From NCBI GenBank assembly GCA_965235115.1, contig OZ249436.1, forward strand, positions 14,014,001-14,078,000: a stretch of 64,000 bases of DNA. Reading direction: 5' to 3'. The stretch comes from Laetmonice hystrix. Its lineage: Eukaryota. Made by a program: the position numbers and the translations under genes. Positions within the stretch are counted from its first letter, which is position 1; each line of letters starts with the position of its first letter. This document shows, piece after piece, positions 1 through 62,247 of this stretch. The notes below the pieces were generated by a model, which was not told the DNA's origin, did not search any database, and saw only the letters and a list, made by a program, of their open reading frames with translations.

Positions 1-702
1 ACGGCTCTGTTGTTAGCCGAATCGACATGACCCATCTTTGTATTAATACGGCTCTGCTGTTAGCCGAATCGACATGATCCATCTTTGTATTAATTATACG
101 GCTCTGCTGTTAGCCGAATCGACATGACCCATCTTTGTATTAATTATACGGCTCTGCTGTTAGCCGAATCGACATGATCCATCTTTGTATTAATAAGGCT
201 CTGCTGTTAGCCGAATCGACATGATCCATCTTTGTATTAATACGGCTCTGCTGTTAGCCGAATCGACATGACCCATCTTTGTATTAATACGGCTCTGCTG
301 TTAGCCGAATCGACATGACCCGTCTTTGTATTAATACGGCTCTGCTGTTAGCCGAATCGACATGACCCATCTTTGTATTAATACGGCTCTGCTGTTAGCC
401 GAATCGACATGACCCATCTTTGTATTAATACGGCTCTGCTGTTAGCCGAATCGACATGATCCATCTTTGTATTAATTATACGGCTCGGCTGTTAGCCGAA
501 TCGACATGACCCATCTTTGTATTAATAAGGCTCTGTTGTTAGCCGAATCGACATGACCCGTCTTTGTATTAATACGGCTCTGCTGTTAGCCGAATCGACA
601 TGACCCATCTTTGTATTAATAGGGCTCTGCTGTTAGCCGAATCGACATGACCCATCTTTGTATTAATAAAGCTCTGCTGTTAGCCGAATCGACATGACCC
701 AT
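1..702. repeat. 47-bp minisatellite, about 15 copies, running off the window edge
   Basis: ACGGCTCTGCTGTTAGCCGAATCGACATGACCCATCTTTGTATTAAT; some units are 50 bp. Confidence 0.97.
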
Positions 703-1414
703 GGGGCAAAGATTTAGATTGTCCATACCTCGTGAAAATAATCTCATTACGTTATTTCCCTCTATCTTTCTATTTGTCAGCCTTGAATATCAAGTGGTCA
801 TCTGTTCAACGTCTGACAAATTATGCCTTGAAACTCAAACATCAAAATGTTTCAGGTATCAATTTTTCTATGGGTGGAACGGCAAATTATTTGGATAACA
901 ATGATTAGGTTGTGATTGATGGCCAGAGAGGCGGAAATTGGTACAAATGCCTGCCTGACTCCACAGATAATGTGCCGCTGTGAGCCAGCACCTGGCAGTC
1001 ATTTCAGGCCAGTTTGAACTGCCCAACTGAAACAGCCTGGACCATTTCAAAATAAATACATTTCTAAGAACGAAGGCCTTTAATGAAAGGCGTAATGCCG
1101 CTAGGGAGAGCTTAATTAATATTACATAACTGTAGTAAAAATCCGTCCCCGGCTCTGGTACGTGGCGCTACCTGGTGTACATGGACACTATGAAACACCC
1201 CGACAATCTGCAGGGTCTTCTCACGCCTGCTTCAGGCACGAGAAGTGGGGTCAAAAGAAGGGAGTACAGGTAATTGATTCAACTATAGGTGAGACTGCAC
1301 TACTGCGACATCTTAATCGTTATAATTATATATCCATTTATAACATAATAATCATTAATACCAACACCACTAATAGTGAAACTGGTATACGTCTGAATCC
1401 GATTATATACGTAC

Positions 1415-4400
1415 CCTTTGTGGAGGGTGGAGCTTTCGTCAGTTTAGCGTAGACGATGACGTGACGTTTGACAGAAGGACTGTCACACAAGTGCTGCAGG
1501 AACAACTCCATGCCGGGCCGTTCATCACCGCCGCTCTGAAACATGGAAAATCACAGTCCATTTGGACACAGCCGACTGTGGAGTAACGAAGATAGATCAT
1601 ATCCAGACACCTGACCCTGAGGCACCGCACAGATCCTCCCACGGTTACCCAGAGAGAAACATCCATCAGACCGAGTTTACGAGATCAACGCTTCATCTGG
1701 GCCGCGCATTTCCATATTATTGCAGAGGGAATGCCTTTCGGTTAAGAGAAAAAACTGGTCTCATCGTTATATTTACTTAAAATAGATATCATACCTGATG
1801 GCAATATGACTTTATCAAGAACTTTAAATGAAACACATGATATATTGATTCAATATGAATCTTCCATGCTCCCGAGAACCATAATACTGTTCAGTGTGAC
1901 GGTAATATCAATGTAGTTGCTAACTGCCTATTTCCCAACGTTCAACTGAAACAGCGATGGAGAGAATGCTCTGAAAAATAATATTTTTTTGGTCTAGAAG
2001 TTAACTTTCCGCTGAAATGTTTTCATAAAAACTATGAACAGCCTTCAATAATACCTTCTTGTCTGGCATTCATTCGCAGTGCAGCCTTCAATAATACCTT
2101 CTTGACTGACATCCATTCTCAGTGCAGCCTTCAACAATACCTTCTTGTCTGACATTCATTCTCAGTTCAGCCTTCAATAATACCTTGTCTGGCATACATT
2201 CTCAGTTCAGCCTTCAATAATACCTTCTTGACTGACATTCATTCTCAGTGCAGCCTTCAATAATACCTTCTTGACTGACATCCACTCGCAGTGCAGCCTT
2301 CAATAATACCTTCTTGACTGACATCCATTCTCAGTGCAGCTTTCAATAATACCTTGTCGGGCATTCATTCTCAGTTCAGCCTTCAATAATACCTTCTTGT
2401 CTGACTTTCATTCTCAGTTCTAGAGAAAATCCTTTGGCAAAATTCCATAACTTCCATCCGACTGAACAATTCATGGCAATCCACCAATTTAATATAAATC
2501 GAGACATATTCAAGTTAACCGATACTTCAAATATCCCTTGCATGTGCAGGGTGCGGGATAGGCTTGCGTTAGCCAATGATATTTCCCTATCAGGACTGTA
2601 CAAAACATGTTCCTTTGATCCAAGATTATCCGTTAATATGTGAGGGGTTGTCCCCTGGGAGGGTGAAGTCGATGGCTCCATTAAATCAGCGACTGGCACT
2701 TGGGGACTGACAGTTAGGATGACATTAAAATGTCGTCCGTGCGGGGTGTGTGCCACTGAGACTGTCCGCATGCCAGGCGCTGTTCATCACTTCACCAGGA
2801 CCACACAAACCAATGAGAAAATCTCGTTCAGAATTTCCCTCTGGTCACTCAAAGAGGTGCTTTGTAATTGGTTTAATTGTTAATGCGGGGTTACATGCAA
2901 TAGTATCACTGTTATCTGCAGCGCACGTAAGGTTCTGGAGCAATAGCTGCCACTCAAATACACAATTAAATATATTGCTAATGACACGTATAAATAAATA
3001 CAAATTACCAAAGTAAATATTCCGTTAACCCAGGCATGCTCTTTAGCGATAGCGACGATTAGAGATATAATTTAAAGACAGTCATCATGCAAAGCAGAAT
3101 GAGCGGCCGAAGGCATACCATCCTGTAGACTAGTCACCTGGGAGGGTTACCAAGTCATCCATCAATTCATATCGGAATACTAATAGCACAAACTCCCGCC
3201 TCTCCCGCACAAGCGGATTATCACCTGTTTTCACCCCATTGAAAGTAATTTATCAGTACTGCAATATTGTTTGCCTTTGAGACCCATTCTTCAAAACCCG
3301 TAATTCTGACATTCAATAGATTTCACCTCGGAATTGGTAAAGCGCTGACTTCTCTGCAGACCTAGTTACTAATATTACGAGAAGGGATTAGAAAATGACG
3401 GAGAGTTGAGGATGCAGAAAGCATCTTAAATAGCGACGTGGACGTTTTCCTCACAATACAACCATACTAGAATGTATAAAATGGTTACATATGGCAAGCA
3501 GTGCCGACCGTGTGAAACCTTTGTTCTCCTGGAACTCTTGATTCACGACATGTCTGAATGATTCAGACCCTCGTCGACCAAAGCACGGATCTCTACTCTA
3601 AAACCAACGACATCAAATGCGTCCTCTAGTTATACTTTTATGACATGAGAAATGAGGAGACAAAGAAGCCAGAATCAATCACTGGTGACGCCCTGGCTTT
3701 GCCGACTGCCACTTTTGGCCCAAACGACCACAAAAAATATGAAAACCGGAACTTCGTTTTCGCAAACCAGTTTGGAAAATATCGGGTTAACCAAGAGTTT
3801 CAAAGTGCACCCATTCCAAGCATCTCAACTGATTATTTCCGTAGGCGAAGCGGACCAAAAAGGTCTTGACGACGACCAGGAGTGCCTGCCTATCTGTGCC
3901 CTTATTCGGTATACTACACATCGAGCAAGCCTGCCACATAAATATGTCAATTACATACCCGGAGACCATTACCTGTCTTCCCATCCATCACTTCTCCATG
4001 AGACAGGGAAAAAATGCACTTGTCCTTGGTTTTGGAGGGTGGCCTACTTCCGACGGCTCAGTAACTTAGTAGGGTTTGCTACTGTCAGCCTCCATCTTAA
4101 AGACGCAGACGAGGTTCTCTGGGGGTTCAGAGCGAGTCAGTAGTGAGCAGTTGGTGCTTAACGCCCAACCAGCAGTATTTCAGCTATATCAGGGCATTGT
4201 GTGATAATGATGAGATGATAGGAAGAACCCCGCGCACCGGGCGACCCCCTCCTCTTTTCGATCCATGCCAAGGGATCTTTAACGTGCCCACATAGATGTA
4301 TCGTAAGACGGCCGGTTTTTAATAAAGCAGTCGGCAGTACTGGTATGCAGGAAAGTCCGGCGAGGCCGTTTGCCGAACTCAGAACCTTTGGATCAAAGAT

Positions 4401-7400
4401 CTCTCACCACTGCGCCACCCGGATTGTTTCTTACCATTACCTGGACCAGAAACGTGTGGCCAATACAACATTAGAAGTTTTCACAGAATTCTAATGTGTA
4501 CGAGTACTAAACCTTAGCTGGATGGCAAGTCTAGTGAGATGTGTTGTTGTGTCATTAATTACCGACCCGACTGGTCGGTACCAAGTCGTATATAACCAGC
4601 TCGGTAGATTGGCAAATAGTCCCGTCTTGTGGGAAGTGTGCGCGCGTGGCCGTCATGTGGGCCACCAAGTCTTCACTGCCACCTCGGTCGTGCTGATAGT
4701 GTGTCAATGCCCATTACTGCCGTATATACCTGTGCTGGTTGGCAGATGAGAAGTCGCACGACGTTTCACGTTCATTATTCGCCGCCTTTCCCTTCTGGTT
4801 GTCACATGACAGCGCGTTCGTATACCATTAATCAGGCTAAGCTGGCCTTGACAGGCTGCTGCCATGTAATCAATGTTAATGCTAGCTGAAGATGACGTGC
4901 TCACAGCGAAAACAGCAAATACAAACATGGACCCAACACTTCATCTCTGCATGCCTGTCAGCTTCAAAGTTCAACGACAACATTGTGAATTCTAGAGCTG
5001 CAGCTGCCAGTATTCATAATTATAATCGCAATGTATATGACACTCTTGACATATTGTTAGGCATTAATATATCTAAATGGATTTATAGATGAAGGCCATC
5101 AACTGAATTTCATTTTTTGTTCTTGCAGATCAGGATGTTTTCCTTCATGATTACAAAAATTTACAATGTATAAAGGTTCAACACAACCTGTCGGTAGGTC
5201 ATATCGACATCCTTCTGCACGACACACTTTTTGCATTCAATTATATTTCCGAATTCCTACAATAATAAGAGTTATAAGAAGAAATATGGAGATGAAAATC
5301 GCCAAGAAATTGGTCCAAAAAGTATCATTTAAAACTAAATCTCGTTCGATTACGCCCCAGTCGATCGTGGGATCCAATAAAGGTGGCCCTGTAATCCGCA
5401 GGGAGAGGGTCCCCAAGATAACTAGATCCTTATTACCCCGGTATTTAAAACTGCATCAACTCTTGTACGAGCAATGCCACACACATTACACAAGTGTAAA
5501 CGTACATGGATCAGGAATCCCAGCATGGGGGAAATGATAACCGAGTCAAACTAAGTATCAGATCGGATGAAAACAATATTATTTACAGTACCCATAAAAC
5601 TGTCTAGCGATCAAACGGGGCTGTAAGCTCGGCATATACTTTTGCTTAACTTGACCAATTAATAGTGGTTTATTTAAGCAGCTGAACTTTCGTTTCTGAC
5701 ATAAAGTGCCTTTTGTTTAAAAAAAATTCAAAGAATACTGCTAGAATATAGCATCCTGCCCCCCCCCCCCCCCCCAATCATTCCAAGGATACACGACCAA
5801 GCCATCGCGTAGATTAGAGCGAAGGTAGGTGTGGCAAGCTCCGAGCAGTAACCTATTGGCATCCGGCAACGATGCTAACAGATGGCGAATACATAACTAC
5901 TATTTCTGTCCGCAATTCATGAAGTTTAAAAAACAATTTAGGAAACATCCTTTAACTTCTGCTTCCACTCAGGAACTACCCATGTTACTGCCATCTTTGT
6001 CACACTAATTAGCTCCTCATTAATTAGCCCCCAATTAATTATTAACGCGACAGAGAAGGATGCAGCACCAGTGCCAGTGTCAAATTTTTACTGTCATACA
6101 TTCTTCCTAGGGAAATCCTAACCCTACCAGACTGCACCTTATTTTATAGGAGTATTTCTTTATAATTCAGTGAATATCAGATAATGTTCAAATGGTCGGA
6201 TACATAACTATTTGTTGTTCTGCACCTTTCTACGGCCGTGAACACATTGGATCCAGTTGCATATTGAAAACCTCCAGAGTTGACCTCAATTAAACACATG
6301 GTAGATATCAATAGCCTTTCTCTGTCGCTGAGGCTGTGATGTAAAGTAAATGCCAATTACCAATGATCCTACTGCAGTGAGCTCAAGTTATCTTTTCGTG
6401 CATTAAAATCCCCATTGAAAATACACCGGTGTTGCCGACACGACTGAAACGGCCCCCCGGTATTTATGTCTTTCCTCGACCCTACTAAAACTGAAACATT
6501 TTTGGGGATTACGAAACTCCTCAATAAGCATTCATATTAAGTAATGAATGACCTCAGACAATGAACATCGTCTCACTGTAATGTAAACTCCTTACAGGTA
6601 TGTAAAGAATACAAGTCCCGTATGTAAGAATACAAGTATAACACTTCACCTGCCCGTATAGCAGCCTGCTGTCTAACCAATCTAAGATGGTGGACGCCCC
6701 AGGCACAGAACTGACATCCTCACCATTCACATGTATGCCCCCTCCCCCGTCTATAGTACAGGAGACACACACCCAATTCTATCTCTGTTCTTTCGACATA
6801 TCACTACTCCTAATGATCATCGAGCAGACGGACCACATGTAATATTCAACATTTTTTCCCACGACCAAAAACGAAGTAAAGGCTCCTTATCTTGTGAGAA
6901 TCCTGTTTTAAATTTGAGTTTATAGCAGAGGTATCATGCCTGTAATCTCTGACACACTAAGTTAGGGTTTAACAGATTGGGCCGCCGCCACGAAAATCTC
7001 TGCAATTCAACCAAAGTCGTCTGATTAATCAAAGGGAAATCAATCGATCCCCCCCCCTTCTTTTTTTAATCATTCGAGAAAGGAGTTTTTAATCATAATT
7101 GCATTGTTTTGGTTGCCAAGGTATTAGTGTAATCGTTGTGTCAGAGAATAATCCTCCCAATCTTAGGCGTTTATATCATCCTGACTCCTTCAAACCACAT
7201 AATCATTGACTCTACACAACTCGTTCCTCAACTCACACGTGTACACTTCACGTCCTTCAAACCACATAATCACTGACTCTACACAACTCGTTCCTCAACT
7301 CACACGTGTACACTTCACGTCCTTCAAACCACATAATCATTGACTCTACACAACTCGTTCCTCAACTCACACGTGTACACTTCACGTCCTTCAAACCACA

Positions 7401-22400: not shown

Positions 22401-25400
22401 CCCGTGAGGCACATCAAGTCTAGTTTGCTATCGAAAAAATGGAAAAACACCGTTGTGATTTTACAGGCATGTTGAATGCAAGTCTGCAGAATTGGGTCAA
22501 TGTTTTGCGTACTACTCCGGTTTAAGATTTTCTTTTACTTGATCTGAACATTAATATCTTGAGGGGGCTGAAAAGTGTACTAGGTCTAAAATCAGGAATG
22601 TGTATCTTCAAACACCTCTACAAGAAACGGTGCTCACCTGCTGTCAAGGACTTGTTGGATACTGAGGACAGGACACAGATGTCCTGTGGACTTCAGACAG
22701 TCAATGACTTCTTGACACAGTGTGCTCTCTGCTGCTGTTAACTGAGGGCATCAAAAGACATCAAGAACCTTTCAACACTTTCCCAGTACTGCATGCTTTC
22801 ATAAATATTTGCTAACTAAAGATTAAGATCCGAAGAGTGTGGGTCTTTTGCTGCACGTTCTGAATACGCTAAAAACTAATGAAATATTTTATAAGTAGTG
22901 ATTAAAAGTTCAATTCATTTATATACGAGTCTCATTCCCCCTATCGTCAGTCTTTTAGAATCTCAGATGAGTTATTTTCAGGACATTTTAACTTAAATGA
23001 AGTTTCAGTTGCATACCTTTGAGAAGGGCGTTTGGTTAGATTCCTCATGGTCATTTACTGCGTGGATGACTGCCTCATTGTTGACGGGCAAACACTGGCG
23101 GACATGGGCCCTTTCTATAACCCTGTGGAGGGTTGGAGGCAGGCCAACCCCACTCCCTGACCACAGACTGTCTTTCTGAACTATCCGGTACACCCGACCT
23201 ACCCGTAACAAATGGTACCATCTCACTGTGGTGTTTTGAAATGCTAGCACCACGTGTTTGACTGGTAGTTTGGACTGATTGCCTGGGACACCTGGTCCGT
23301 CGCTGTCCTTGGGTTTGTCCACGGCCGTCTGTATTGGTTCACCTAATCGGTGGTCGCCAGTCTCTCCAACAAGGCAAGCAGAAACGTAAAACCTGAGCTT
23401 GGCCGAGTTGTCGATTCGTGACTCAACCTGTAAACTGTCCTTGTGAGTGACGACGAAAAGTTGTGAAGTGTACGTTGGTCGTTGGCCCACTCCGATCACA
23501 TCATTTGTAGTATGGATTTGTTCTACATGCAATGGGTCCGTCCTCCTCAGACCTTTAGGTCCGTTAACCGCCTGTCGTTTGACTGACCGACTCTCAGACT
23601 CGGTACCATCTCGTCCTCTTTTCCTGTCAGGTTTCTCACACCTAACCACATGACAACGTCCCCCATTTATCTCATACTCATCTGATGACACGGTTTCTGG
23701 CGGGTATTGATCTTTTTTATACAACAACACAACATCTTTCATTGAGAACTGCAGGTATATGTTTACATGGAGTTTCTTTATGAAGCGGACGTCCCCGACC
23801 TCTTCAACAGATGGGAAATTACTCACAACAAACCGTTCGACAACCACGGCAAAGTGATCCACTCTCACCAAGGCCCCAATGTGGGAGGGACCAATGTGAC
23901 CACAGTGACAGGACGTCTGGCTCCGGTCACACGTGTCACACGTGCTGGGAGGAGCAGCGTCTGACGTCACACTGTCCCTGGCGGCGACCACACAGTTCAC
24001 ACTACCAGTCTTGTCGACTAGCTCCACGTGGCCGGTCTGACCATCCAACTGGAGAACCCCGACTACCACCTAAAGGAACAAACCACCTTCGTCAATTTAC
24101 ATAATATAACAGTACGACGCACGTTAACAATACACACCCAGTTCATTCAACATGACCCCTTGGAAGGACTGCCAGTACATGTGTCGTCAGTGCCTTGGCG
24201 TGAAAGACCATGTGAATATGTGTGATGACATAATCGGCCAATAGTAGCGTGGAACAAAATGGTTCATACCACGTGACAACGCATTGACCAATTACAATGC
24301 AAATATACGAGGTGTGTTATAACAGAGGCTGATCTACAAAACTTCAAAATATCTGGGATACAACCTTATAAAGCTACGATTTGTGAGTTTGATTTTCTCA
24401 AATACAAAAACTGTAGTCAAATAACGAAAGACGTTATAAACTTATTATTTGTCAATCGAGCTTTAAGTTTTAAATTAATAAATTACCTTTTCTTCTATTA
24501 CATGTATTTTGGTGAAAGAACGACATTATGGCCATAAAATGCTTCCCTCACTTGAACGAACTATCAAAAGTTGCCCTACCCATGGCATACTGAAATCTTT
24601 GTGGTCCAAAATCTTGTAATTCCAGTAGAGACTATCATTCAGTGCTTGAGCATTGACAGGATTGACCAATAGATGGCGCACTGATTCACTGAAATCCTGA
24701 GCCTCGGTCCACCCGTGTTCCTTGATGTCTGCCATGCTGGGAAAGGTGCACTTAGCCTTGAACAGCGTCTGATTTAAGGTATTAAACGGGGGGAAACTGA
24801 AATAAGACATTATCTCAGGAGGCTATTCGAGAAATTCAACTAAATCCATTCCTTACTGATGCCTGTAATCTGGCTTTCGTTTCCTTTCTGACATCATTAC
24901 CGGCACTTGGGTTGGTACTCAAAAAATAAGGATGGTCCGTTTTATCCATTTCAATCAATTACTATATAAATACTGAAGTCCATCAAATACCTTCACTTCC
25001 CTTAAAGTCTAGAAAACCGTTTACCTTTGGAGGCACAATATTACAGGATCCATGGTGTTGGTCAAGGAATTCTTGCAACATGTGCCTGACACTAACAGGC
25101 AGTGACCAGCAGGCTGGCCCTACCCCCTGATGGGTAAACAATTTGAAAACTAGTCTCCCCACTGCAGTATCCCTGTAAACAAAAATTGAACAATTTCATT
25201 CCATGCTATCCACTTTTCCTACTTTTATGAATTCATTCAATGAACAGGAAATTTAAGATCGACATATCGAAAAACAATGTGTACAATCAGTGACCACATA
25301 CAGGTAGATGCTCCGCTACAATCTTTCACTACAACACGTTACAGTGTAGAGATAACATGTACATTTAGCCCTTGAAATTCCCCGAATATACACGTTATAA

Positions 25401-39188: not shown

Positions 39189-41925
39189 TTAGATTTTGTG
39201 GATGCCCAGCCTGTCCATGAGCAGGCGACGGCGGGAGTGGAGGTCGTCCCAGTCTAGGTAACAGCCCTCCAGATGGCGCGGCGGTCCGCCCCGGGTGATG
39301 GTGAACCCTGTCCTGCCGTGGAGCACTCGGTCGTTATGGGTGAGCACGATATCACCTGTATAAGGGCAGAAATTGGGGTCATTTGGGGCTTAACGGGTTC
39401 ATAGAGCCGAGATACTCGTAAGAAAATCCGGCCACGGAATGGCTGCTCATAGGTCCATTGACGGCCACTGAAAGCAGGGAGAAGTCCTACAGTTTTTCCG
39501 AGTCAAGAAAGAGATAGGCTATTAGTCTAGTAATTAAGCCTATAAAATGATCGCGGAACCCTTCTCTAGGCTTCAGACAGATATACGTGTATTTTACATT
39601 GCTACAAGCGATGTTGTGTTTAATTAATTCTCGATTTTCCGCCTCCTCTAGCATGACGGCTACCGCAGTATACGGGTGCTCACAGGTGCCACCTGTCGGT
39701 AAAGTCGTCAGGACGGAACACCATATTCGTGAGGTTACTGTACAAAAGATGCATTGCTGTTGCAAATTCTGGAAAATGGAAACAATATTATATTGAGGAA
39801 AGAATTTATTCTCAAATATCCGTTTTCTTACCTGGACTCAAACAGAAGGCGATTTTGTTTTCCGGCCGATAGAGGAAGTCGTTCATTTTTTTCAGGGCGT
39901 TGTAGAAGGGTCTGACGACCTCTAGCGGCACTCGCAGGAAGGAATCTCTCGTCTGGTTGCTATACTTGACTGTCTGCAGTTCTCCATCAAATCCATGACT
40001 GTAGATACATGTATCAGAGATCGCATTAGTTAAAGGTCCAACCCGAATATAATAACGACGAAATTGCCCCCTACCAGTATGAATCAGCCTTAGGGGGCCT
40101 ATGCCCATTATCTGTACCTAATCTGTTATGCTTTTAAAAACAGACACCAGTGGCATCTCAAGAGCCCCACTTCGCCACTAATCTTAGACATGACCTTATC
40201 AACAACGCCATTCAACGAGGGAATTCCCTCCGATGCGCACGCATCATCATTAAAGCAAAGGTCTTCTTCAGATTTATGGTGCCGTCATATTATTGGCATC
40301 ATCTGCCTGAGCCCAGGCCGAGAGCAGTGAGGCTGGGTTCAATTAGTCTAATTAGTCCTTGATGCTAGCTCGTTTATGTGTAATGCTCCGTTACTTGACA
40401 GAGACCCCGCCTGTTAGTGTTACTTTGAACACCTGGGACCCGGTTTGTGATAGGGAGCTAGGGTAGCCTGGGATTGTGACGGCGCGCTGTGTGACGCTGA
40501 CGTCATACGGCGAGCTGTGTGACGCTGACGTCATACGGCGAGCTGTGTGACGCTGACGTCATACGGCGAGCTGTGTGACGCTGACGTCATACGGCGAGCC
40601 GTGTGACGCTGACGTCATACGGCGAGCCGTGTGACGCTGACGTCATACGGCGAGCTGTGTGACGCTGACGTCATACGGCGAGCTGTTTCGAAATGTAAAC
40701 TCTGACGGCTGTAGAGTCCTATATGAGAGTCCTACTAGGCCCCTATTTCATTTTTCTCAAAAACAGGCGAGTGTATGATCATCAGATTTATACATCATAG
40801 AGCTAGGGGTAAAAGGTATGTTATATCTCGTTATATATTCGAGGTGGACCTTTAATGGCATTACGTGACGATTATATCGGGTGAGCAAAAAAACTGGAAC
40901 ACGTGAAAGTTTCTGATAAAATGTCTCAAATCTGATCGACCACCAGATGTCACGTCATTCAGACACAGACGCACCAACCTTGCCTAACACGTGTGGTACC
41001 ACGTTAACTACACTGATGTGCGTTTCTCATCTGTCGTTATCCTGTCGTGCGTTAAAATCCCCATTGAAAATACATTGGAGTTAACGATACGACAAGCTAA
41101 CGGCATGATGAGTTCGGCACTACAATTTTTGACATGCAGTTTATAAAATGATATTATTTAGACGTCTGACCTATTTATCTGATATTTGTAACACATGCCC
41201 CAATTAACCAAATGATATCTTGTGCCAAATACTATGACATGCACATTCCAGTCAAGTCTTTTTATTTTTTTTTTGCTCACCTGATATATATGTATAACAC
41301 CAATTACACGTTTAATTAATTTCTCAGAAAATAAATGTCCTTTTCTCGCTTCGCTCCATGGCATAGATATATTTACCTGAAAGTTGTGTGTCTGGCCAAG
41401 TAATGGAAGGGATAAAGATCTGAGCCAACATCTGTGAAGTCAACGGGGACCTCACAGAGCAGTTTGTAGTAGAACGGGTACTCCTCCTTCAACTGCTTGG
41501 CCACTCGGAAGGCGTCGACCAACTCGGTCATTCCCCCACCGCCCGTAGCCTGGACGATACAGTGCAGCAAGCCAACCTACAAGAAGAATCTCGCTACAAT
41601 TAACTCTATCCCAGTATGAATTTAATTTGTTGCTTTAAAACACCAACACGCATATTGCAACGGTCACTAACTATACAGTAGCCTATCATACTGGTATATC
41701 AGCAGTCGGTGCATGGTAGTGTATGCTTTAAAATATATCCGTTTGCAAGTGATACAGTGTCTATGAATTATACTGAATAATTGCACAGACCCTAAATAAA
41801 TATTCAGCTTAAATATGTAGGCCATGTAGGCCCCTATACTTTTAGATCTAAGGCTCGGCCCATAGCCTACGGGATCTCTCTCTCTCTCTCGATCTCTCTC
41901 TCTCTCTCTCTCTCCCTCCACCTTC

Positions 41926-41956
<31 letters not shown>

Positions 41957-44900
41957 TTCATTCTAACAGGTTGCCCTCTGCCCCTGCATGATGACGGTTT
42001 TAAGTTATATTTAGATACTGACCCCTGGCATGTACTTAAGGTAGGGAAAGTCAGCATGAAGACCGAGTGGGTCGGAGGTCCAGGCTAGGTTTGGTGGGTC
42101 CTCACGGGCCTTCACCGAGTATATAAAGCTACAACAGAATGTAAGTGCAAATACATACAGGTGGACATTTTGATCTAAGTGTTGTAAATAAAATTTAATT
42201 GATGCAATTTATCCCAAATGTTGCTTACAGTAAGCAACGAGTTGCAGTAAGCAACGAGTTGCAGTAAGCCATTATTCTGTAAGCGTGATTAGAAAAGTTG
42301 TTTGTTCTATTTGTACATTATACTAAACAGCATTGACAATCGTTTTCGTCTTTATAATCCCCCCTGCATAGGATAGAGAAAAATGAAATCACGCGACGCC
42401 TTGCTCTACTTTTGACATAGCAGTAAGGCTGAGTTCACATAGGAGTATACGGCACGGTGTAAGGGATAAACTAATATTATGGTTATAGACGGATGGAAAT
42501 ATTATGAATGCATAGGATAGGGGAATGAGTACAAGCGGGAAGGGGGCCTGTATAATAAAGTGATTATATTTTGTCTAGTCACGTAGATCACGTCATGCTT
42601 TTATCCAGTTAAAAGTGTACACGCTTCCCTCACGATAGAGCATGATTTAGGACGCATGCGCAATTAAAATAGGAGGCGGGGACATGAGAAGAATTGGGAT
42701 ATAAATATATGTATTGGATTGATAATAAAAGAGAGAAGAGTAGAGTGGAGAGATTGTCGACTACTGTCACTGGGAGTTTTGCGTTGTTCCATCCCCAACG
42801 ACTGGGAGGCCGGCCGCTGAGCTAGGAATATGGCAGTCTTGGCTTAGCTGGCCGGCACCTCAAACTTTAAACATTATACACTTTACACTGGCGCCCGAGG
42901 AGTGTGGCTGACGGGCGGCCACACTGGCCTGAACCCGGGAGGAGAATGGCCGACGCGGCCCATCACCGTGAGCGTCACCTGGCCGGATTCCTCCGTGATG
43001 TGGCCTCCATGGATTATTTTGACTGATCAAGGTATCGAGTTTAAAGGTGTCGAAATGACGGCATATATGAGGTCGATGGGGATCGACCACAGGAGGTCTA
43101 CACCATTTCACCCCCAAACCAACGGCCGGTTGGAGCGGGCCCATCGTTCATTAAAGGGGATTCTGCGGAAACTTACTAACACCAGAGCTGAGGAATGGGA
43201 GGACTGTCTGGCGGGTGCTCTCATGGCGTATCGTTGCACGCCCGGTGTCAATGGGTTCACCCCCTATTTTTTGTTGTACGGCAGGACTCCTGAAGCTCCT
43301 ACCCAGCGGTTGCTGCGCCCACCCCCTGATGCGGTGCGGGACGCGGTGTTGCGCTTTGACCATCTCGCCACGGCGTTTCAGCAAGCTGCGCGGGACACGA
43401 GGGAGTCGAGGACTCACAACTATGCGCGGCTGACACGTCAGGCGAATGCCGCCCCTTTATCAGTGGGAGATTTTGTTGTATTGAAGGTGTCTGAGCGGGT
43501 GTCACTCGACCCCCGCTGGGATCATCTGTACCTGGTGACAGCATCGCGGGGCCCCGTTATCTCTATCACGGACCAACGTACCGGTCATCGGCGAGTGGTG
43601 AATAGGGACAAGCTGCTCCTTGTGGATGCCGATGACTGGGAGGGTGTACGGCCGAGGGTCAAGCGGGGCAGTCGCCCTCCACGCCGTACTGTGCCCCCTC
43701 CCCCTGATCAAGGATTGGCTCCTCGGGAACGTCCAAATATCAACTTGGACCGGGTGGCTCCGGGTGTTTTTGCGCGCCAGGGTACAACATTGGATCACTC
43801 TGCCCCCCGACCGTCAACATCGCGGGCTCGAGCCGGGCCCCAGCCGTCAACATCAGATACCGCTGCACCTTCTGTCGGGGTGCGTCCGGTGCCCATGGCC
43901 ACGGGGGAGGGTGCGCCGTCAGAGACGCCCATGGATACCGAACCGATTGGTATGCGCACGCGTAAACGGTTACGTCAGCGGTTCAATGAGGGGGATCCCC
44001 GTTTAGTTAAGAGGCGTTGTTCTGAAGCGTTTCTTTCTGTCATAGCTGCCTTGTCACCATGGAATGCTCATTTTGTTTAGCTGCGCTGCTGCTTTGTCAG
44101 TTTTGTTTCACGGATGTGTCGGGCCAACTTCGCCATCCTATACCGAACGGAGTTTTGTTGTCCCGCGACGCGGACGTGTGGGTGCTCAACGCCAGGTGGA
44201 CGGTGGTTACTTCCATCTCCAGGCCCGAGGAGCCTCCCATGCTGGCATGGATCGCATTCGCCTTGGGCCGTCTTTCGGACGCTGCAGCGGTGGTCCCACC
44301 TGGTCATCGTGCAGTGATGGAGGCTAGGCTTCGTAGCCTGCAATTGTTATATACGGATCATGATGTCTCCCCACCGTCATCACCCTCGCGTCTGAGGCGG
44401 GGATTGCTGGACAGTCTGGACTTCGTCGGCGAGCTGTCATCAGCACTGTTTGGTACCGCCACGACGGGGCAGGTTGAGGCTGTTAGGCGACAACTTGCTT
44501 TGGCTGTCCGCCGGCAGGAGGTTTTATTTCATGACCATGTTAAGTTTGTATCGGTTTTGAACGCTACGAGGTGGCAGGCGGTGCGTAACCATGGTGACAT
44601 TGTTGTTTTGGCGGCGAATATTTCACGGCTTTTGGAGCAGGAAGATGTGCTGGCTTTTCGCCTGGATCAGCTGGAGGTGTTGCATGGATTTCTGCATATT
44701 TTGGAGCAGCTGGATCAACTTAATATGATCGTCCAGCTACGTCGCCGGGCCTATGTTGCGGCCTGTGAAGCCATGAGGTCGGGCCACCTTTCCAGGGATG
44801 TAATAGAGGACGACCCTCTACAGGATATTTTGAATATTTTGTCGCGTCACGGTTTCATCATGCGATTAGACTGGTACAGAGCCTATACTCCTGTTCGCAC

Positions 44901-47900
44901 CTTGTGGGATACTGCGGATTCCTTGACGTGTGTATTTACCTTGTGGTCTGCTGATGGGAAGCAGTATGTGTTATGGTCTTTGAGACCCCTGTGGTTCCGG
45001 AGTGGTGGTCTAGTGATTCGATATAGGACCCGCTCCCCTGTGATTACCGACGGAGTTTTTTCTACCCAGCTTGTGCCGGACCATTGCCAAGGTAATACTA
45101 ACAAGATTTGTTTTGTTTCACAATCAGACTATGATACTTGTGAACTTGAACTTATCCAAGGCCGTCCTGTGACTTGTCCGTTTGAAGTGTCCGCGACCGA
45201 GCGGCCCCACCTTGACTTTCTGGCGACTGGGGCATGGCTTGTTTCGGTGGCGCGGTGTGTGAACTTTACCGTTCGTTGCCCAGATCGTGCGCCGCGGGAC
45301 TTTGCTGTGTGTGAGCCGGAGAGGTGGAATATCTCCACTGAATGTGTTATTGACTGGCCTTTTGGCAGATCTATCCGTACTAGCCATTTGTTCTTGACTG
45401 TGGAATCAAGGTATTATGCGCCGTTGAAGTGGCATAACTTTTCAATTCCGTCGGTGAAGCGTAGGCAGATTTCAGCCGCTTTGGCCGTGCATGCCCGTCT
45501 CATTGTTGATCCTCGAGCGGACTTATCAATCTCGTCACCCAGTGATGTTGCGGGTGGAATTGTTTTGGATAGTTTGCCTTTGACTTTATCTGCGGTGTCA
45601 CTTTTTGTTGCTGTAGTAGCGAGTGTTGTCGCCTGTTATTGTTATATCCGATGTAACTTTGCTTCTGTGTGCTCCCGGGGAGGGCGGGGACAGCAGGCGG
45701 AGGCACGTCCGCCCCACCTGGGCGATGTCGCCGCTGGTCTCGCTCTGCCATTGCCGGGGCCAGAGCAGTGATCCATTACCGGGTCGCCGGGATATCTAGT
45801 AGTGGGGTTTCTTTTGCTTGTTTTAATGGGGTTGTTTATGGTTTATGCTGGTTAAGTTGATGTATTACGGGGGTATTTCTATGTATCTGGAGTTAGCTTT
45901 TGCTTTGGGGTCTAAATGGTATTGCGTGTCCTTGTTTAAGTGGCTAATTTTCGGTTTAGTTGTTTTGGGTTCTGTGACAAATACTGCGTTTTTGTCAAGA
46001 AAAGAGGGGGGAGTAATGTAAGGGATAAACTAATATTATGGTTATAGACGGATGGAAATATTATGAATGCATAGGATAGGGGAATGAGTACAAGCGGGAA
46101 GGGGGCCTGTATAATAAAGTGATTATATTTTGTCTAGTCACGTAGATCACGTCATGCTTTTATCCAGTTAAAAGTGTACACGCTTCCCTCACGATAGAGC
46201 ATGATTTAGGACGCATGCGCAATTAAAATAGGAGGCGGGGACATGAGAAGAATTGGGATATAAATATATGTATTGGATTGATAATAAAAGAGAGAAGAGT
46301 AGAGTGGAGAGATTGTCGACTACTGTCACTGGGAGTTTTGCGTTGTTCCATCCCCAACGACTGGGAGGCCGGCCGCTGAGCTAGGAATATGGCAGTCTTG
46401 GCTTAGCTGGCCGGCACCTCAAACTTTAAACATTATACACTTTACACTGGCGCCCGAGGAGTGTGGCTGACGGGCGGCCACACTGGCCTGAACCCGGGAG
46501 GAGAATGGCCGACGCGGCCCATCACCGTGAGCGTCACCTGGCCGGATTCCTCCGTGATGTGGCCTCCATGGATTATTTTGACTGATCAAGGTATCGAGTT
46601 TAAAGGTGTCGAAATGACGGCATATATGAGGTCGATGGGGATCGACCACAGGAGGTCTACACCATTTCACCCCCAAACCAACGGCCGGTTGGAGCGGGCC
46701 CATCGTTCATTAAAGGGGATTCTGCGGAAACTTACTAACACCAGAGCTGAGGAATGGGAGGACTGTCTGGCGGGTGCTCTCATGGCGTATCGTTGCACGC
46801 CCGGTGTCAATGGGTTCACCCCCTATTTTTTGTTGTACGGCAGGACTCCTGAAGCTCCTACCCAGCGGTTGCTGCGCCCACCCCCTGATGCGGTGCGGGA
46901 CGCGGTGTTGCGCTTTGACCATCTCGCCACGGCGTTTCAGCAAGCTGCGCGGGACACGAGGGAGTCGAGGACTCACAACTATGCGCGGCTGACACGTCAG
47001 GCGAATGCCGCCCCTTTATCAGTGGGAGATTTTGTTGTATTGAAGGTGTCTGAGCGGGTGTCACTCGACCCCCGCTGGGATCATCTGTACCTGGTGACAG
47101 CATCGCGGGGCCCCGTTATCTCTATCACGGACCAACGTACCGGTCATCGGCGAGTGGTGAATAGGGACAAGCTGCTCCTTGTGGATGCCGATGACTGGGA
47201 GGGTGTACGGCCGAGGGTCAAGCGGGGCAGTCGCCCTCCACGCCGTACTGTGCCCCCTCCCCCTGATCAAGGATTGGCTCCTCGGGAACGTCCAAATATC
47301 AACTTGGACCGGGTGGCTCCGGGTGTTTTTGCGCGCCAGGGTACAACATTGGATCACTCTGCCCCCCGACCGTCAACATCGCGGGCTCGAGCCGGGCCCC
47401 AGCCGTCAACATCAGATACCGCTGCACCTTCTGTCGGGGTGCGTCCGGTGCCCATGGCCACGGGGGAGGGTGCGCCGTCAGAGACGCCCATGGATACCGA
47501 ACCGATTGGTATGCGCACGCGTAAACGGTTACGTCAGCGGTTCAATGAGGGGGATCCCCGTTTAGTTAAGAGGCGTTGTTCTGAAGCGTTTCTTTCTGTC
47601 ATAGCTGCCTTGTCACCATGGAATGCTCATTTTGTTTAGCTGCGCTGCTGCTTTGTCAGTTTTGTTTCACGGATGTGTCGGGCCAACTTCGCCATCCTAT
47701 ACCGAACGGAGTTTTGTTGTCCCGCGACGCGGACGTGTGGGTGCTCAACGCCAGGTGGACGGTGGTTACTTCCATCTCCAGGCCCGAGGAGCCTCCCATG
47801 CTGGCATGGATCGCATTCGCCTTGGGCCGTCTTTCGGACGCTGCAGCGGTGGTCCCACCTGGTCATCGTGCAGTGATGGAGGCTAGGCTTCGTAGCCTGC

Positions 47901-50900
47901 AATTGTTATATACGGATCATGATGTCTCCCCACCGTCATCACCCTCGCGTCTGAGGCGGGGATTGCTGGACTCATAGGCGCCAGAAGCGGGGGGGGCAGG
48001 GGGGGCAACCGCCCCCTCAATAATCTGGTTGGGGGGGCATCGCCCCCCCAATAATCTGTGATCATGAATGAAAAAAGGCAGGTTTTTCCACATACAGTAG
48101 GCCTGTACACGCTTCCCTCACGATAGAGCATGATTTAGGACGCATGCGCAATTAAAATAGGAGGCGGGGACATGAGAAGAATTGGGATATAAATATATGT
48201 ATTGGATTGATAATAAAAGAGTGAAGAGTAGAGTGGAGAGATTGTCGACTACTGTCACTGGGAGTTTTGCGTTGTTCCATCCCCAACGACTGGGAGGCCG
48301 GCCGCTGAGCTAGGAATATGGCAGTCTTGGCTTAGCTGGCCGGCACCTCAAACTTTAAACATTATACACTTTACAACGGGTATACGGTGCACGTTTTGCA
48401 GGGCACGCGAATAGCTTAAATCGTACAATAGGATCTTATAATACCGGGTCACATCAGAGGGCACTATTCGAAAAGGCGTATAGTATAGTATTGTGGGAAT
48501 CGTGCGTGTTCGATTTTAGTGCAGCGTATACCTTGGGGTGCCTGTGTTTAAAAGTTCAGCATTTACACAGTTCTTGATATTTTTTAACTAAATTTTCAGA
48601 TCTAAGGGCCGATATATAGGGGTATTGACTCTGAAAATTTCAGAGAAATCAGTTCAAGGGGAGGGGCAGGGGGGCACCTTTCAATTCATGTCGGGAATTA
48701 AGACACTGGCGGGCGTGACTCGCCGTGCCCGTATAGCGTATAGCGAATAGCGAATAGCGAATACCGTATACCGTATACCGTATACTCCTATGTGAACTCA
48801 GCCTAAAAGCCCTGCACCGAGTATAGTCATGCCGATATCTCACCCAAAGGGCGTCATACGCATGAAGGAGACCCTAGAGGCAACCTTCTGAACTTGTCCA
48901 ACCTCCACGGCTGCATTCTGGATCATGACCACTCCATATTCCTCCATCCGTGTTAGCAGGTCATACAGGGTCACATCGTCAGCAAGCAGCTTCAAAACAA
49001 CACAAAACAATTTTGTATACATGTATATTAAATTTTAGGATGGCTATATGTTTCCATGCCCTTTTAATGTTTTCCAAAATTGTATACAGATACTGTCTGT
49101 TCCAAATGCATGCCAATATCTTGTAAGCTTGGGATCTTATTATTATCTTATTGGGATAAAGTTTTTATATGAATGTGGACATTAGGCCCCCCAAAAATAG
49201 TTTCGTTTCTTGTCCTTTCATATAAAACATTTGGTGCGGTGACGCGGTTCTTTTTTTCATCTTTCTTTTTTTGGATGCAACCAGACAATGGCCGATTTTC
49301 GAATGCAATTGCTGTTGGGCACATGAAGAAATCTTGAAGAAAAAAAACTATTGCAATTATGTTCAATGTTTTCATTGAAGAATGAAGAATGTGTAAAACT
49401 CACATAAAAAGCAATAAGACTAACAGAAAAACGCAAACGCCAAAGAACCGTTGCAACGTTCTGTCACAGCGCTACACTGCCCATCATATGAAGCAGTCGG
49501 ATTTTTAAAAAAAGAATTGACGCAGGGGATTTTAGGTGACGCGCGCGAGGACAAGAAACGAATATCTTTTTTTGGCTTTAAGTTTATTTCTCTCAGATTA
49601 ACGAGAAACTATAGGCTACCACAGAGCAAGCTAACCTGTTGGAAGTCGTAGGTAGGGATTTTACCCTGCATCTCCGATCCCCAGAGTATGGGCGGTTTAC
49701 GGAACATGAGGTCGCGCTTGGTGTGGAGGTCCGGGTTAAAGGCTCGCTTCTGCAGCCAGGAGAACGGGTAAGGGCTCTGGTGACCGTCCGACCATGTTAT
49801 CCACACCGTCTTGGTTGTAGCATCCAACTGGAACCACACAGCTCTTCATATTAAACAGTGGCAATTCATGTCAAGTGGTCTTCACTGCTATTCGCGCACT
49901 GAGTTAGTGAGTGAGTTATAGGAGTCTATATGTTACGCGCCATCGGTCGATCTGACCCATCGGCCGATGGGTCAGACCCATCGGTGGATCGGCCAACGGG
50001 TCGCCCATCGACCGATGGGCGACCCATCGGTGGATGCGCGGCGCGCGCCAGGGTCGTGGCCCATCGGCCGACGGGTCTGACCCATCGGTGGATGGGTGGT
50101 TGGTAAACCAGGAGACATGAAATGACATGAAAACCTGGAGGAGACAATTACCTCTCAACCCGAGCCGCATGCCTCCCTTCAGTCAAGAACTCAGATCCCC
50201 CAGCCACCTCCGCCCCAGACCACCCAGCCACCTCTTGCCCAGACCCCACACACACCTCCTGTCCAGACCCCACACCCACCTCCTGTCCAGACCTCACACC
50301 CACCTCCTGCCAGACCCCACACCCACCTCATGTCCAGACCTCACACCCACCTCCTGTCCAGACCTCACACCCACCTCCTGTCCAGACCTCACATCCACCT
50401 CCTGTCCAGACCCCACACCCACCTCCTGTCCAGACCTCACACCCACCTCATGTCCAGACCTCACACCCACCTCCTGTCCAGACCCCACACCCACCTCCTG
50501 TCCAGACCTCACACCCATCTCCTGTCCAGACCCCACACCCACCTCCTGTCCAGACCTCACACCCACCTCATGTCCAGACCTCACACCCACCTCCTGTCCA
50601 GACCCCACACCCACCTCCTGTCCAGACCTCACACCCATCTCCTGTCCAGGCTCCACACCCACCTCCTGTCCAGACCTCACACCCATCTCCTGTCCAGACC
50701 CCACACCCACCTCCTGTCCAGGCTCCACACCCACCTCCTGTCCAGACCCCACACCCACCTCCTGTCCAGACCCCACACCCAGCCCCTGTCCAGGCTCCAC
50801 ACCCACCTCCTGTCCAGACCCCACACCCACCTCCTGTCCAGACCCCACACCCACCTCCTGTCCAGGCTCCACACCCACCTCCTGTCCAGACCTCACACCC

Positions 50901-61020: not shown

Positions 61021-61182
61021 TCAGGCATAACCCAGTTACTGTGAGTGAGGGTGGCAGTGAGTGAGTAATGGAGGTTTTACCCTGTCTTGGTATTTCACGG
61101 AGAGTATTGATTATTACCGTATTTTTTCAGGTGACCGTTTGACTGATCATGAACACTGATAAATCCTGAGGGAACTGATGCC

Positions 61183-62247
61183 ATGTCACGCTCCAGGATT
61201 GTATTTGGCTATATCTCGGGTTTGGTGTCAATGCTGGCTAACATCAGCAGTATGACCTGCGTTCAATCCCTACGACGTCTCGTGCCGGACTTTGAACTTG
61301 CAGCAGCTAGATTTTTATTACAACTTATTACAACATATACTGTTTCAAAAATGACAGGTAATTCTCTGAGTATTCCTTATAAATGGCACCACTGGATGGC
61401 TATATCAGTCGCAGGAAATATTGTGTACAACGTTGGATTTTTCTTTGGAACCTCCATTATTTCCTTGACGGAGACAATTGTATGTTACAATTTAGTAATG
61501 ATGTTGTCTACTGCGGTCATCCAATGGGTGTTTTTGAAGTTAAAAGTCGAGAAGATTCGGATTGCAGCTATCGTAATTTCAACTGTGGGAATCGTTGCAG
61601 TTTGCCAGCCATGGGACACTTTAAACTATTCCATCCTAAGTTCTACAAACACAACACAACTTCCTTCAATATCTGGAACTGATCCCATGTGCCAGTCGAC
61701 CAACCAGACTCATTGTATCAGAGCTCTCGTCAATGAAACACAAATCATTGACATTTATCCATGGTACTGGAGACTTATGGGATATTTGCTGGTTATTGTG
61801 GCCGGAATATCTGATGCTCTATTTGTCATAATTGCCGGCAATATTATTGAGGACATAAGTCCTGTAGTTCAGGTTATGTGGTTTTCAATTTTTGGATTCC
61901 CCATATCAGTAGTTGTATCTACCTTTTTTGAAGAGCAGGTCATTCCAAATCACTGTTCGGATATTCTACTCGTTTTGGGACACTGCGTTTTAGCAACTCT
62001 TTCAATTATTACTATGATATATTCGGCTACTCTCATTGGGCCTCTGGTGGCGTCCCTACTGGACGGCCTAGGACCCGTATTCATGTTGTTACCCCAATAC
62101 ACTGTTGCGGCTGATATTGTGCCTTCTCACAAAAACTGGACTGTGATATTGGGAGCAATCCTGGCCACATTTGGTGTGTCATTAGTACCAGTGTTTGAAC
62201 TTGTATTGCATTATACCACAACGACAACAACGCCAGATAAAATGTAA
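61183..62247 (+). CDS. EamA/DMT-superfamily (SLC35G-like) multi-pass membrane transporter, 354 aa, single coding exon
   Basis: Uninterrupted ORF with about 10 hydrophobic helices in two halves. Contains VPDFELAAARF and GIVAVCQPW, a glycosylatable central loop (NYS, NTT, NQT, NET) and TVILGAILATFG. A splice acceptor (attttttcag, ending 61130) lies just upstream. Confidence 0.8.
   Translation: MSRSRIVFGYISGLVSMLANISSMTCVQSLRRLVPDFELAAARFLLQLITTYTVSKMTGNSLSIPYKWHHWMAISVAGNIVYNVGFFFGTSIISLTETIVCYNLVMMLSTAVIQWVFLKLKVEKIRIAAIVISTVGIVAVCQPWDTLNYSILSSTNTTQLPSISGTDPMCQSTNQTHCIRALVNETQIIDIYPWYWRLMGYLLVIVAGISDALFVIIAGNIIEDISPVVQVMWFSIFGFPISVVVSTFFEEQVIPNHCSDILLVLGHCVLATLSIITMIYSATLIGPLVASLLDGLGPVFMLLPQYTVAADIVPSHKNWTVILGAILATFGVSLVPVFELVLHYTTTTTTPDKM

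Follow-up and report, generated by a model that had tools for sequence, protein, structure and literature searches.

A tandem retroelement insertion lies at positions 42458-48375 of a 64,000-nucleotide stretch of the Laetmonice hystrix genome (NCBI GenBank assembly GCA_965235115.1, contig OZ249436.1, positions 14,014,001 to 14,078,000 of the forward strand); this whole stretch is here called the window. The insertion is 5,918 bp long and, by self-comparison of the window, has the layout LTR-int-LTR-int'-LTR' (LTR, long terminal repeat; int, interior), with ACGG as its target site duplication (TSD). Its first member is a unit of 3,989 bp that keeps an uninterrupted envelope (env) gene and has lost most of gag and pol. 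The reading that we favour, at a probability of about 0.8, is that this unit arose by internal deletion from a 7.27-kb gag-pol-env element of the Ty3/gypsy (errantivirus-like) type, is non-autonomous and was mobilised in trans.

Layout of the tandem insertion

The features of the insertion, followed by the host features of the window, are these:

42454..42457, + strand: 5' TSD of the whole tandem insertion, ACGG, directly preceding the first LTR
42458..42887, + strand: LTR 1, 430 bp, with TGT...ACA ends and TATA-like and AATAAA-like motifs within; 430/430 identical to LTR 2
42889..42900, + strand: primer-binding site (PBS), TGGCGCCCGAGG..., 3' of LTR 1, read from the sequence
42946..43014, + strand: gag start, the first ~22 codons up to the deletion junction, identical to the full-length copies
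42968-42973, + strand: candidate donor-like motif GTGAGC, read from the sequence
42998..44080, + strand: integrase remnant, an open reading frame (ORF) of 360 aa, collinear with the C-terminal ~355 aa of full-length pol
43010-43014, + strand: junction microhomology, TGGAT here vs CGGAT in full-length copies, from comparison with those copies
44030..44045, + strand: putative polypyrimidine-AG acceptor-like motif, 13 nt 5' of the env ATG, read from the sequence
44059..45771, + strand: env ORF, 570 aa, uninterrupted (ORF list, homologues, predicted model)
44413..44421, + strand: private 9-bp insertion (Ser-Leu-Asp) in the fusion peptide, missing in 9/9 other copies
45998..46014, + strand: polypurine tract (PPT), read from the sequence, ending 2 nt before LTR 2
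46017..46446, + strand: LTR 2, common to both tandem units (self-comparison)
46447..47971, + strand: second unit interior, with PBS, gag start, junction, integrase remnant and env codons 1-118, cut within the fusion peptide
47972..48103, + strand: first 132 bp of a ~390-bp hAT-like miniature inverted-repeat transposable element (MITE) with ends CATAGGCGCC...GGCGCCCCTG and 8-bp TSDs
48104..48375, + strand: LTR 3, positions 159-430 only, with 1 substitution (99.6% identity)
48376..48379, + strand: 3' TSD ACGG, directly after the last LTR
23008-24069, - strand: CTC1-like exon, which marks the host as an animal
61153-62244, + strand: EamA-type transporter ORF
41857-41978: (TC)n microsatellite

The period of LTR plus interior is 3,559 bp, and after the first unit it repeats at 100% identity for 1,955 bp more (46017-47971). 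The second copy then breaks off within env, its protein ending at aa 119, and is followed by 132 bp of a foreign repeat and by an LTR without its first 158 bp. Only the outer ends of the tandem are flanked by ACGG (42454-42457 and 48376-48379). Within the first unit the PBS begins TGGCGCCC... at 42889 and is presumably Lys-like in its tRNA. The retained gag start is out of frame with the integrase remnant, whose ATG arises across the deletion junction and which holds half of the catalytic core (the second) along with the C-terminal domain and a tail rich in Pro and Ser; it matches rve weakly (E 0.011). A domain search of the unit's proteins detected no protease, reverse transcriptase (RT) or RNase H in the interior. 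An earlier note on this DNA had described a 3,989-bp element with identical 430-bp LTRs, a PBS, a PPT and a perfect TSD for the whole insertion, holding only an integrase remnant and an uninterrupted 570-aa ORF without protease, RT or RNase H. Its LTRs (430/430 identical), PBS site, PPT, outer TSD (ACGG at both ends) and interior content are all real, the last in agreement with the domain search; the unit it delimited is only the first repeat of the tandem. That the donor-like and acceptor-like motifs act as splice sites for env is a guess, and the gag ATG would then precede and overlap the env ATG, an awkward arrangement for translation.

The surroundings of the insertion are repetitive. The (TC)n microsatellite lies immediately 5' of it, and it is embedded in a very high-copy repeat (window positions 42426-42457 and 48376 onward). 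Read contigs (four DNA runs of one sample) have a depth of ~52,000 in the bin 42402-42535 vs ~50-57 in unique flank. Some of them join both flanks directly; other copies of the high-copy repeat, not an empty allele, are the most likely source.

Full-length partners and deleted copies

The 627-Mb assembly (35 contigs) was searched for relatives of the unit; the searches score the best candidates only, so copy counts are lower bounds. With the LTR as query the best 40 of 49 candidates were scored, and these contain nine LTR pairs: four about 6.84 kb apart, one 6.48 kb apart and four, the window included, about 3.55 kb apart. The long-spaced pairs bound 7.27-kb gag-pol-env Ty3/gypsy elements with the window's LTR, which bears out the earlier note's derivation of the unit from a gypsy-type element, and the full-length partner that it had proposed to look for is present as five young copies. 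Full-length Gag has 315 aa and a zf-CCHC knuckle. Pol follows in the -1 frame relative to gag and contains a DTG protease, RVT_1, RT_RNaseH, Integrase_H2C2 and rve; Env has 567 aa, and env begins 22 nt before the pol stop, as it does in the window unit. All three ORFs are open in 4/5 young full-length copies, and the fifth has a 362-bp deletion in pol.

Full-length copies align to unit positions 1-557 and 554-3989, with 3,285 extra bases between them; the shared parts are 99% identical, and LTR, PBS and PPT are the same. The window unit thus equals the full-length element minus positions 558-3842, with 557 joined to 3843. A CGGAT repeat stands at either end of the break: ...CCACGGAT|GGAGC... 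in gag, ...CCCTCGGAT|TATTTT... in integrase. The lost segment begins near gag codon 23 and ends midway through the integrase core; with it went all but the start of gag, protease, RT and RNase H as well as half of integrase, so that about 22 first gag codons and about 355 last pol codons remain 5' of env. The gag-pol domains deleted here are present in full-length copies that have the window's LTR, which makes the unit a non-autonomous derivative and not an autonomous member of Ty3/gypsy. An origin of the deletion by splicing was considered and rejected: wherever the break is set within the microhomology, its ends are never GT...AG, so a copied splice is not the source. The deletion looks like the product of a template jump at the microhomology in the course of reverse transcription. 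Two rearranged copies of the family were also noted. One, on C9, joins full-length positions 1-1872 to 4464-5914, and the other, on C5 at 36.65 Mb, has an env fragment 2.1 kb from an LTR.

The deletion is not peculiar to the window. A probe of 200 bp across the deletion junction has 20 matches in the genome, all scored: 6/20 span the junction, 8/20 cover only its 5' half and 6/20 only its 3' half, the half-only matches being full-length or rearranged copies. The six spanning matches represent five loci, namely the window (two matches), C7, C21, C4 and C1 at 24.03 Mb. The flanks are unrelated among all five. The TSDs of the four young deleted loci are ACGG, ACGG, ACCT and AACG/CACG (3/4 bases), and those of the full-length copies are AAGT, ACCT, ATGT, ATGC and AGGT; the 5' copy starts with A in 9/9 TSD-bearing copies. 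A C>T change within the junction is common to the four young deleted loci and absent from the full-length and older deleted copies, which argues that the deletion arose once and that its product was copied to new sites. The occurrence of the same junction at loci with different flanks and TSDs points to mobilisation of the deleted form in trans. The earlier note had held that a deletion unique to this locus would speak for a post-insertion event instead of a mobile family; the same junction at five loci with different flanks speaks for the mobile family. A deletion confined to the window locus is refuted by those other loci, and the differing flanks do not look like those of segmental duplicates of one deleted locus.

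The deleted form is both old and recently active. The two LTRs of a deleted copy differ at 0-1 bases, those of a full-length copy at 0-4. In a tree of the shared 1.45 kb, with two old full-length copies as outgroup, the older deleted copy is placed among young copies on a tip branch of 0.019, vs <=0.0035 for the others. From these tips and the LTR pairs it follows that the deleted lineage is older than any extant intact full-length insertion and yet has been active recently. At several of 22 parsimony-informative sites (e.g. columns 544, 647 and 2689-2711) the groupings of deleted and full-length copies conflict. Recombination after co-packaging would produce such sites, and gene conversion may be an alternative source. 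Among young loci the two forms are near parity (4 deleted vs 5 full-length), and the depth of read contigs, ~570-620 over the interior vs ~50-57 in unique flank, fits the dozen or so copies in the assembly.

The envelope protein and the fate of its gene

The 570-aa product has a hydrophobic, signal-like N-terminus, the motif RLRR at aa 111-114, a fusion peptide and a long helix at aa 160-240, and is also predicted to have a beta-rich head and a transmembrane (TM) helix at aa 506-532. Homologues of Env comprise 5 close and 287 distant ones. The window Env itself reaches no Pfam threshold and has no Baculo_F match at E<=1; among its aligned homologues 49/61 match Baculo_F (PF12259, E<=0.001). 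A profile of the Env alignment matches PDB entries 9w4d, 9w4e and 9w4c, each a "fusion protein", at E 1e-12, and the blocks of the cleavage site and fusion peptide line up in that match. The AlphaFold2 model (mean predicted local distance difference test score 79.6) shows a helix of 81 residues, a head rich in beta structure and a further helix at the C-terminus. In Foldseek, envelope fusion proteins of baculoviruses are its closest viral fold matches (E 8e-18 to 3e-15), and its closest solved structures are the F proteins of respiratory syncytial virus (RSV), human parainfluenza virus 3 and Newcastle disease virus (E 7e-12). VIA-align against RSV F gives Z 12.2 over 282 residues with a root-mean-square deviation of 5.1, and a protein-atlas look-up leads to Baculo_F clusters, mostly arthropod, a composition that has no bearing on the host. 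The call of an F-type envelope in the earlier note is borne out by the Baculo_F matches, the match to 9w4d and the fold matches to baculovirus and RSV F: homology and predicted fold confirm Env as a class I fusion protein of the baculovirus-F/paramyxovirus-F type. With baculovirus F and pneumo/paramyxovirus F it shares a basic cleavage site followed by a fusion peptide of the type G-L-x-D-F-V-G-x5-L-F-G, a long central helix, a beta-rich head and a C-terminal TM helix. It differs from them in sequence, at 9-14% identity, with family membership shown through its homologues, and the window Env has 3 extra residues inside the motif.

Those residues bear on the history of this locus. The fusion-peptide consensus of the Env family is G-L-x-D-F-V-G, and after RLRR the window Env reads GLLD(SLD)FVGELSSALFGT, with the spacing altered by 3 residues in the window copy only. 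The 9 extra bases (Ser-Leu-Asp) set it apart from 9/9 other copies examined, and the main read contigs are without them. In the second tandem unit, the 132-bp filler is the start of a ~390-bp dispersed repeat with at least 369 candidates in the genome, of which 40 were scored; copies are 94-99% alike and have a common length, common ends and 8-bp TSDs at three other loci (L059-L061). By its ends and TSDs the repeat is a hAT-like MITE, apparently with recent activity. Its first base in unit 2 falls exactly at the point where the 9 extra bases of unit 1 begin. Unit 1 reads GCTGGAC+AGT+CTGGACT at a target that is GCTGGACT, and the 9-bp insertion can be read as a hAT-type excision footprint. The env-to-MITE junction, present only in the second unit, is carried by one read contig of run X4. 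A likely order of events has four steps. First, a hAT-like MITE would have landed in the fusion peptide of env. Second, an unequal LTR-LTR exchange would have duplicated the element into a tandem. Third, the MITE would have excised from unit 1 and left a 9-bp scar, by chance in frame. Fourth, a deletion in unit 2 would have taken what was left of both the MITE and env, along with 158 bp of the last LTR.

Whether env is kept by selection can be asked of the copies themselves. Of the six deleted copies three have an open env, one a stop, one a frameshift and one a truncation. The young full-length copies have their own open env in 5/5 cases, and no env-less LTR pair occurs among the 40 LTR matches scored of 49 candidates. 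Private env variants are nonsynonymous (N) to synonymous (S) 12:7 in deleted copies vs 9:3 in full-length copies (Fisher p 0.70), and the N fraction in deleted copies is not below the neutral 0.75 (p 0.17). No sign was found in the deleted copies that env is retained by selection, and its retention is probably incidental. An intact env beside a deleted gag-pol, as this case shows, need not mean co-option.

A second family bears on the same question. With Env as query the genome yielded 78 matches of 398 candidates, and many of these belong to a pol-less element of ~3.5 kb with a 544-bp LTR, a TGGCGCCC-type PBS, a gag remnant, env and a second LTR; this element and the window unit have 43-44% identity in Env. 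Pairs of the 544-bp LTR stand 2.7-3.2 kb apart at >=15 dispersed loci; among the best 40 of 188 LTR candidates there is no pair about 7 kb apart that would represent a full-length partner. The nearest gag outside the family, among the best 138 of 396 candidates, is 67% identical and belongs to another full-length element. Perfect 4-bp TSDs are present in 9/10 copies checked, with A first in 10/10 and identical LTRs in 8/10, and the LTR has the same terminal 7 and 8 bases as the window LTR. The common LTR ends and A-first TSDs suggest that the same or a related integrase serves both families. The env frame of the second family starts at about residue 35 of the window Env, without a start codon or signal peptide. 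In the 11 copies analysed, out of the dispersed loci plus arrays, it is open in 6/11, and one frameshift is common to two copies. The arrays, tandem repeats of this gag-env element, occupy ~0.4 Mb of contig 12 (~27.54-27.94 Mb, L044-L047); one period is 12,957 bp (about 20 units), another 2,904 bp (at least 5 units with common LTRs). Identity between units is 99.9-100%, and most of them have an open env frame. Deletions of the central part that spare env-side sequence thus recur in this genome. Because the untranslatable env of the second family is retained equally well, incidental or cis-acting retention is favoured over use of the protein.

A third env family was also observed, on C20 at 9.168-9.174 Mb and on C30 at 8.948-8.954 Mb, with env 48-49% identical to the window's. 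The env frame on C20 is open for 644 aa. A gag of 363 aa lies ~5 kb upstream in this family, which is probably full-length.

Explanations and known counterparts

In the favoured reading a single 3,285-bp deletion between the CGGAT repeats, made by a template jump in reverse transcription, would have yielded the element. Everything that it needs in cis would have been retained: both LTRs, the PBS and the PPT, together with the leader and its gag start, where packaging presumably takes hold. Gag-Pol of the full-length copies would package, reverse-transcribe and integrate the deleted RNA, which would give A-first 4-bp TSDs like those of the helpers, and env would survive merely through its position 3' of the deletion. 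Several points weigh against this account. Movement in trans is itself read back from the copies, and the X4 contig that backs the env-to-MITE junction comes from the same sample as the assembly. The N:S tests have low power (19 and 12 variants), and the open-env deleted copies taken by themselves (N 6 : S 5, p 0.11) lean towards constraint. In the second family N:S is 57:43 in env vs 60:25 in the gag remnant (Fisher p 0.067). There may, then, be some constraint on the env sequence of pol-less elements.

Within the favoured reading, one sub-case holds that the deleted RNA is a defective-interfering parasite, which competes for Gag-Pol and so damps the family. The deleted form has all the cis signals, is only half as long as its helpers and nearly equals them in number of young copies, and co-packaging with full-length RNA is suggested by the mosaic sites. 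There are nevertheless still full-length copies with identical LTRs, so interference would be incomplete, and we regard this sub-case as tentative.

The earlier note had proposed that the unit is the env-supplying half of a two-component system. As such a satellite, it would provide Env that boosts the helper's supply or arms env-less or env-defective relatives, and the pair would form a two-component infectious system. The open env in 3/6 deleted copies, the candidate donor-like and acceptor-like motifs that a spliced env mRNA would use, the persistence of the deleted form beyond every extant intact full-length insertion, its near-helper abundance (4 young deleted vs 5 young full-length loci) and the weak N:S skews just described (6:5, p 0.11; second-family env, p 0.067) could all be taken in its favour. 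Against it, 5/5 young full-length copies have an open env of their own, and none of the 40 scored LTR matches belongs to an env-less pair. Among copies whose env is broken, the LTRs are nonetheless identical or nearly so, and the frameshift common to two second-family copies indicates that env-dead lineages went on moving. The second-family env also lacks a start codon and signal peptide, and the window env is scarred in its most conserved motif. We consider the satellite unlikely. A broader form of the idea is improbable to a similar degree: pol-less elements that keep env would be favoured, not accidental, with Env or an env RNA signal raising particle transmission or arming env-less relatives. 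It rests on two families that have shed replication genes and yet kept env, one of them outlasting the intact helper insertions. If true, it would mean retroviral satellites with a structural gene and a two-component infectious retroelement system in an invertebrate.

Co-option by the host, which the earlier note had raised as an early stage of env domestication, is very improbable. The window env would be on course to serve the host, perhaps by receptor interference against related viruses or by fusing cells, and an open 570-aa ORF downstream of a promoter-bearing LTR is what such a gene might start from. There are precedents for domesticated env in Drosophila Iris, the mammalian syncytins and mouse Fv-4. 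These share with the window an env ORF without functional gag-pol adjoining; they are, however, single, old, selected loci, and the window element is multi-copy, LTR-flanked and recently mobile, with half of its env copies broken. The window insertion is very young (identical LTRs) and sits within a very high-copy repeat, and its env is one of about 8 open copies in the family. It carries a private, transposon-left insertion of 3 aa in the fusion peptide, its tandem twin is truncated, LTRs are intact in the multi-copy element, env is broken or truncated in 3/6 deleted copies and N:S of 12:7 is not unlike neutral. A local artefact, that is, a post-insertion deletion at the window only or a misassembled tandem, can be dismissed almost entirely: the 100% identity of the two units could come from repeat misassembly, but 4 more loci, each with flanks of its own, share the junction, an X4 read contig holds the env-to-MITE junction unique to the second unit, and ACGG stands at the outer ends only.

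The favoured reading, a trans-mobilised deletion derivative, has counterparts among known elements. Non-autonomous LTR elements with autonomous partners include mouse ETn/MusD, IAP I-delta-1 and plant LARD, TRIM and BARE2. Like the window unit they have their partner's LTRs, PBS and PPT, lack RT and integrase, and are found as independent insertions with TSDs. They carry either no ORF at all or gag-side remnants, whereas the window unit has a complete env ORF. Ty3/gypsy elements with F-type env have been described in multiple near-identical intact copies from many animal phyla, non-insects included (Chary & Hayashi, eLife 2026, PMC13524379). The full-length partner resembles the errantiviruses of that account in its LTRs, PBS, gag, pol (PR-RT-RH-IN) and 3' F-type env, and the window unit differs from them in being without gag-pol; the label "errantivirus-like" is used here independently of position in their pol tree. 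The main text of PMC13524379 makes no mention of deletion derivatives, and a literature search found no description of env-retaining non-autonomous errantivirus derivatives. A vertebrate parallel is chicken EAV-HP, described as a pol-less provirus that still produces new insertions (PMC3554524). The window unit is like it, as described there, in being a pol-less LTR provirus with env-side sequence kept, recent insertions and dependence on the enzymes of other elements. EAV-HP is reportedly alpharetrovirus-like, with an unrelated type of Env and part of gag kept, and if so it resembles the second family of this genome more than the window unit.

F-type env elements in non-insects are thus already published, and the satellite and co-option ideas for the window element are unsupported; what is added to that published picture of animals is non-autonomous derivatives. 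The locus is a clean, datable case of an infectious-type retroelement family breeding its own parasites, in which one microhomology deletion has given a half-length element about as common as its helper, with a complete class I fusion-protein gene aboard. With its second pol-less family and its arrays, this genome is well suited to asking whether env is kept by selection, by a need in cis or by chance.

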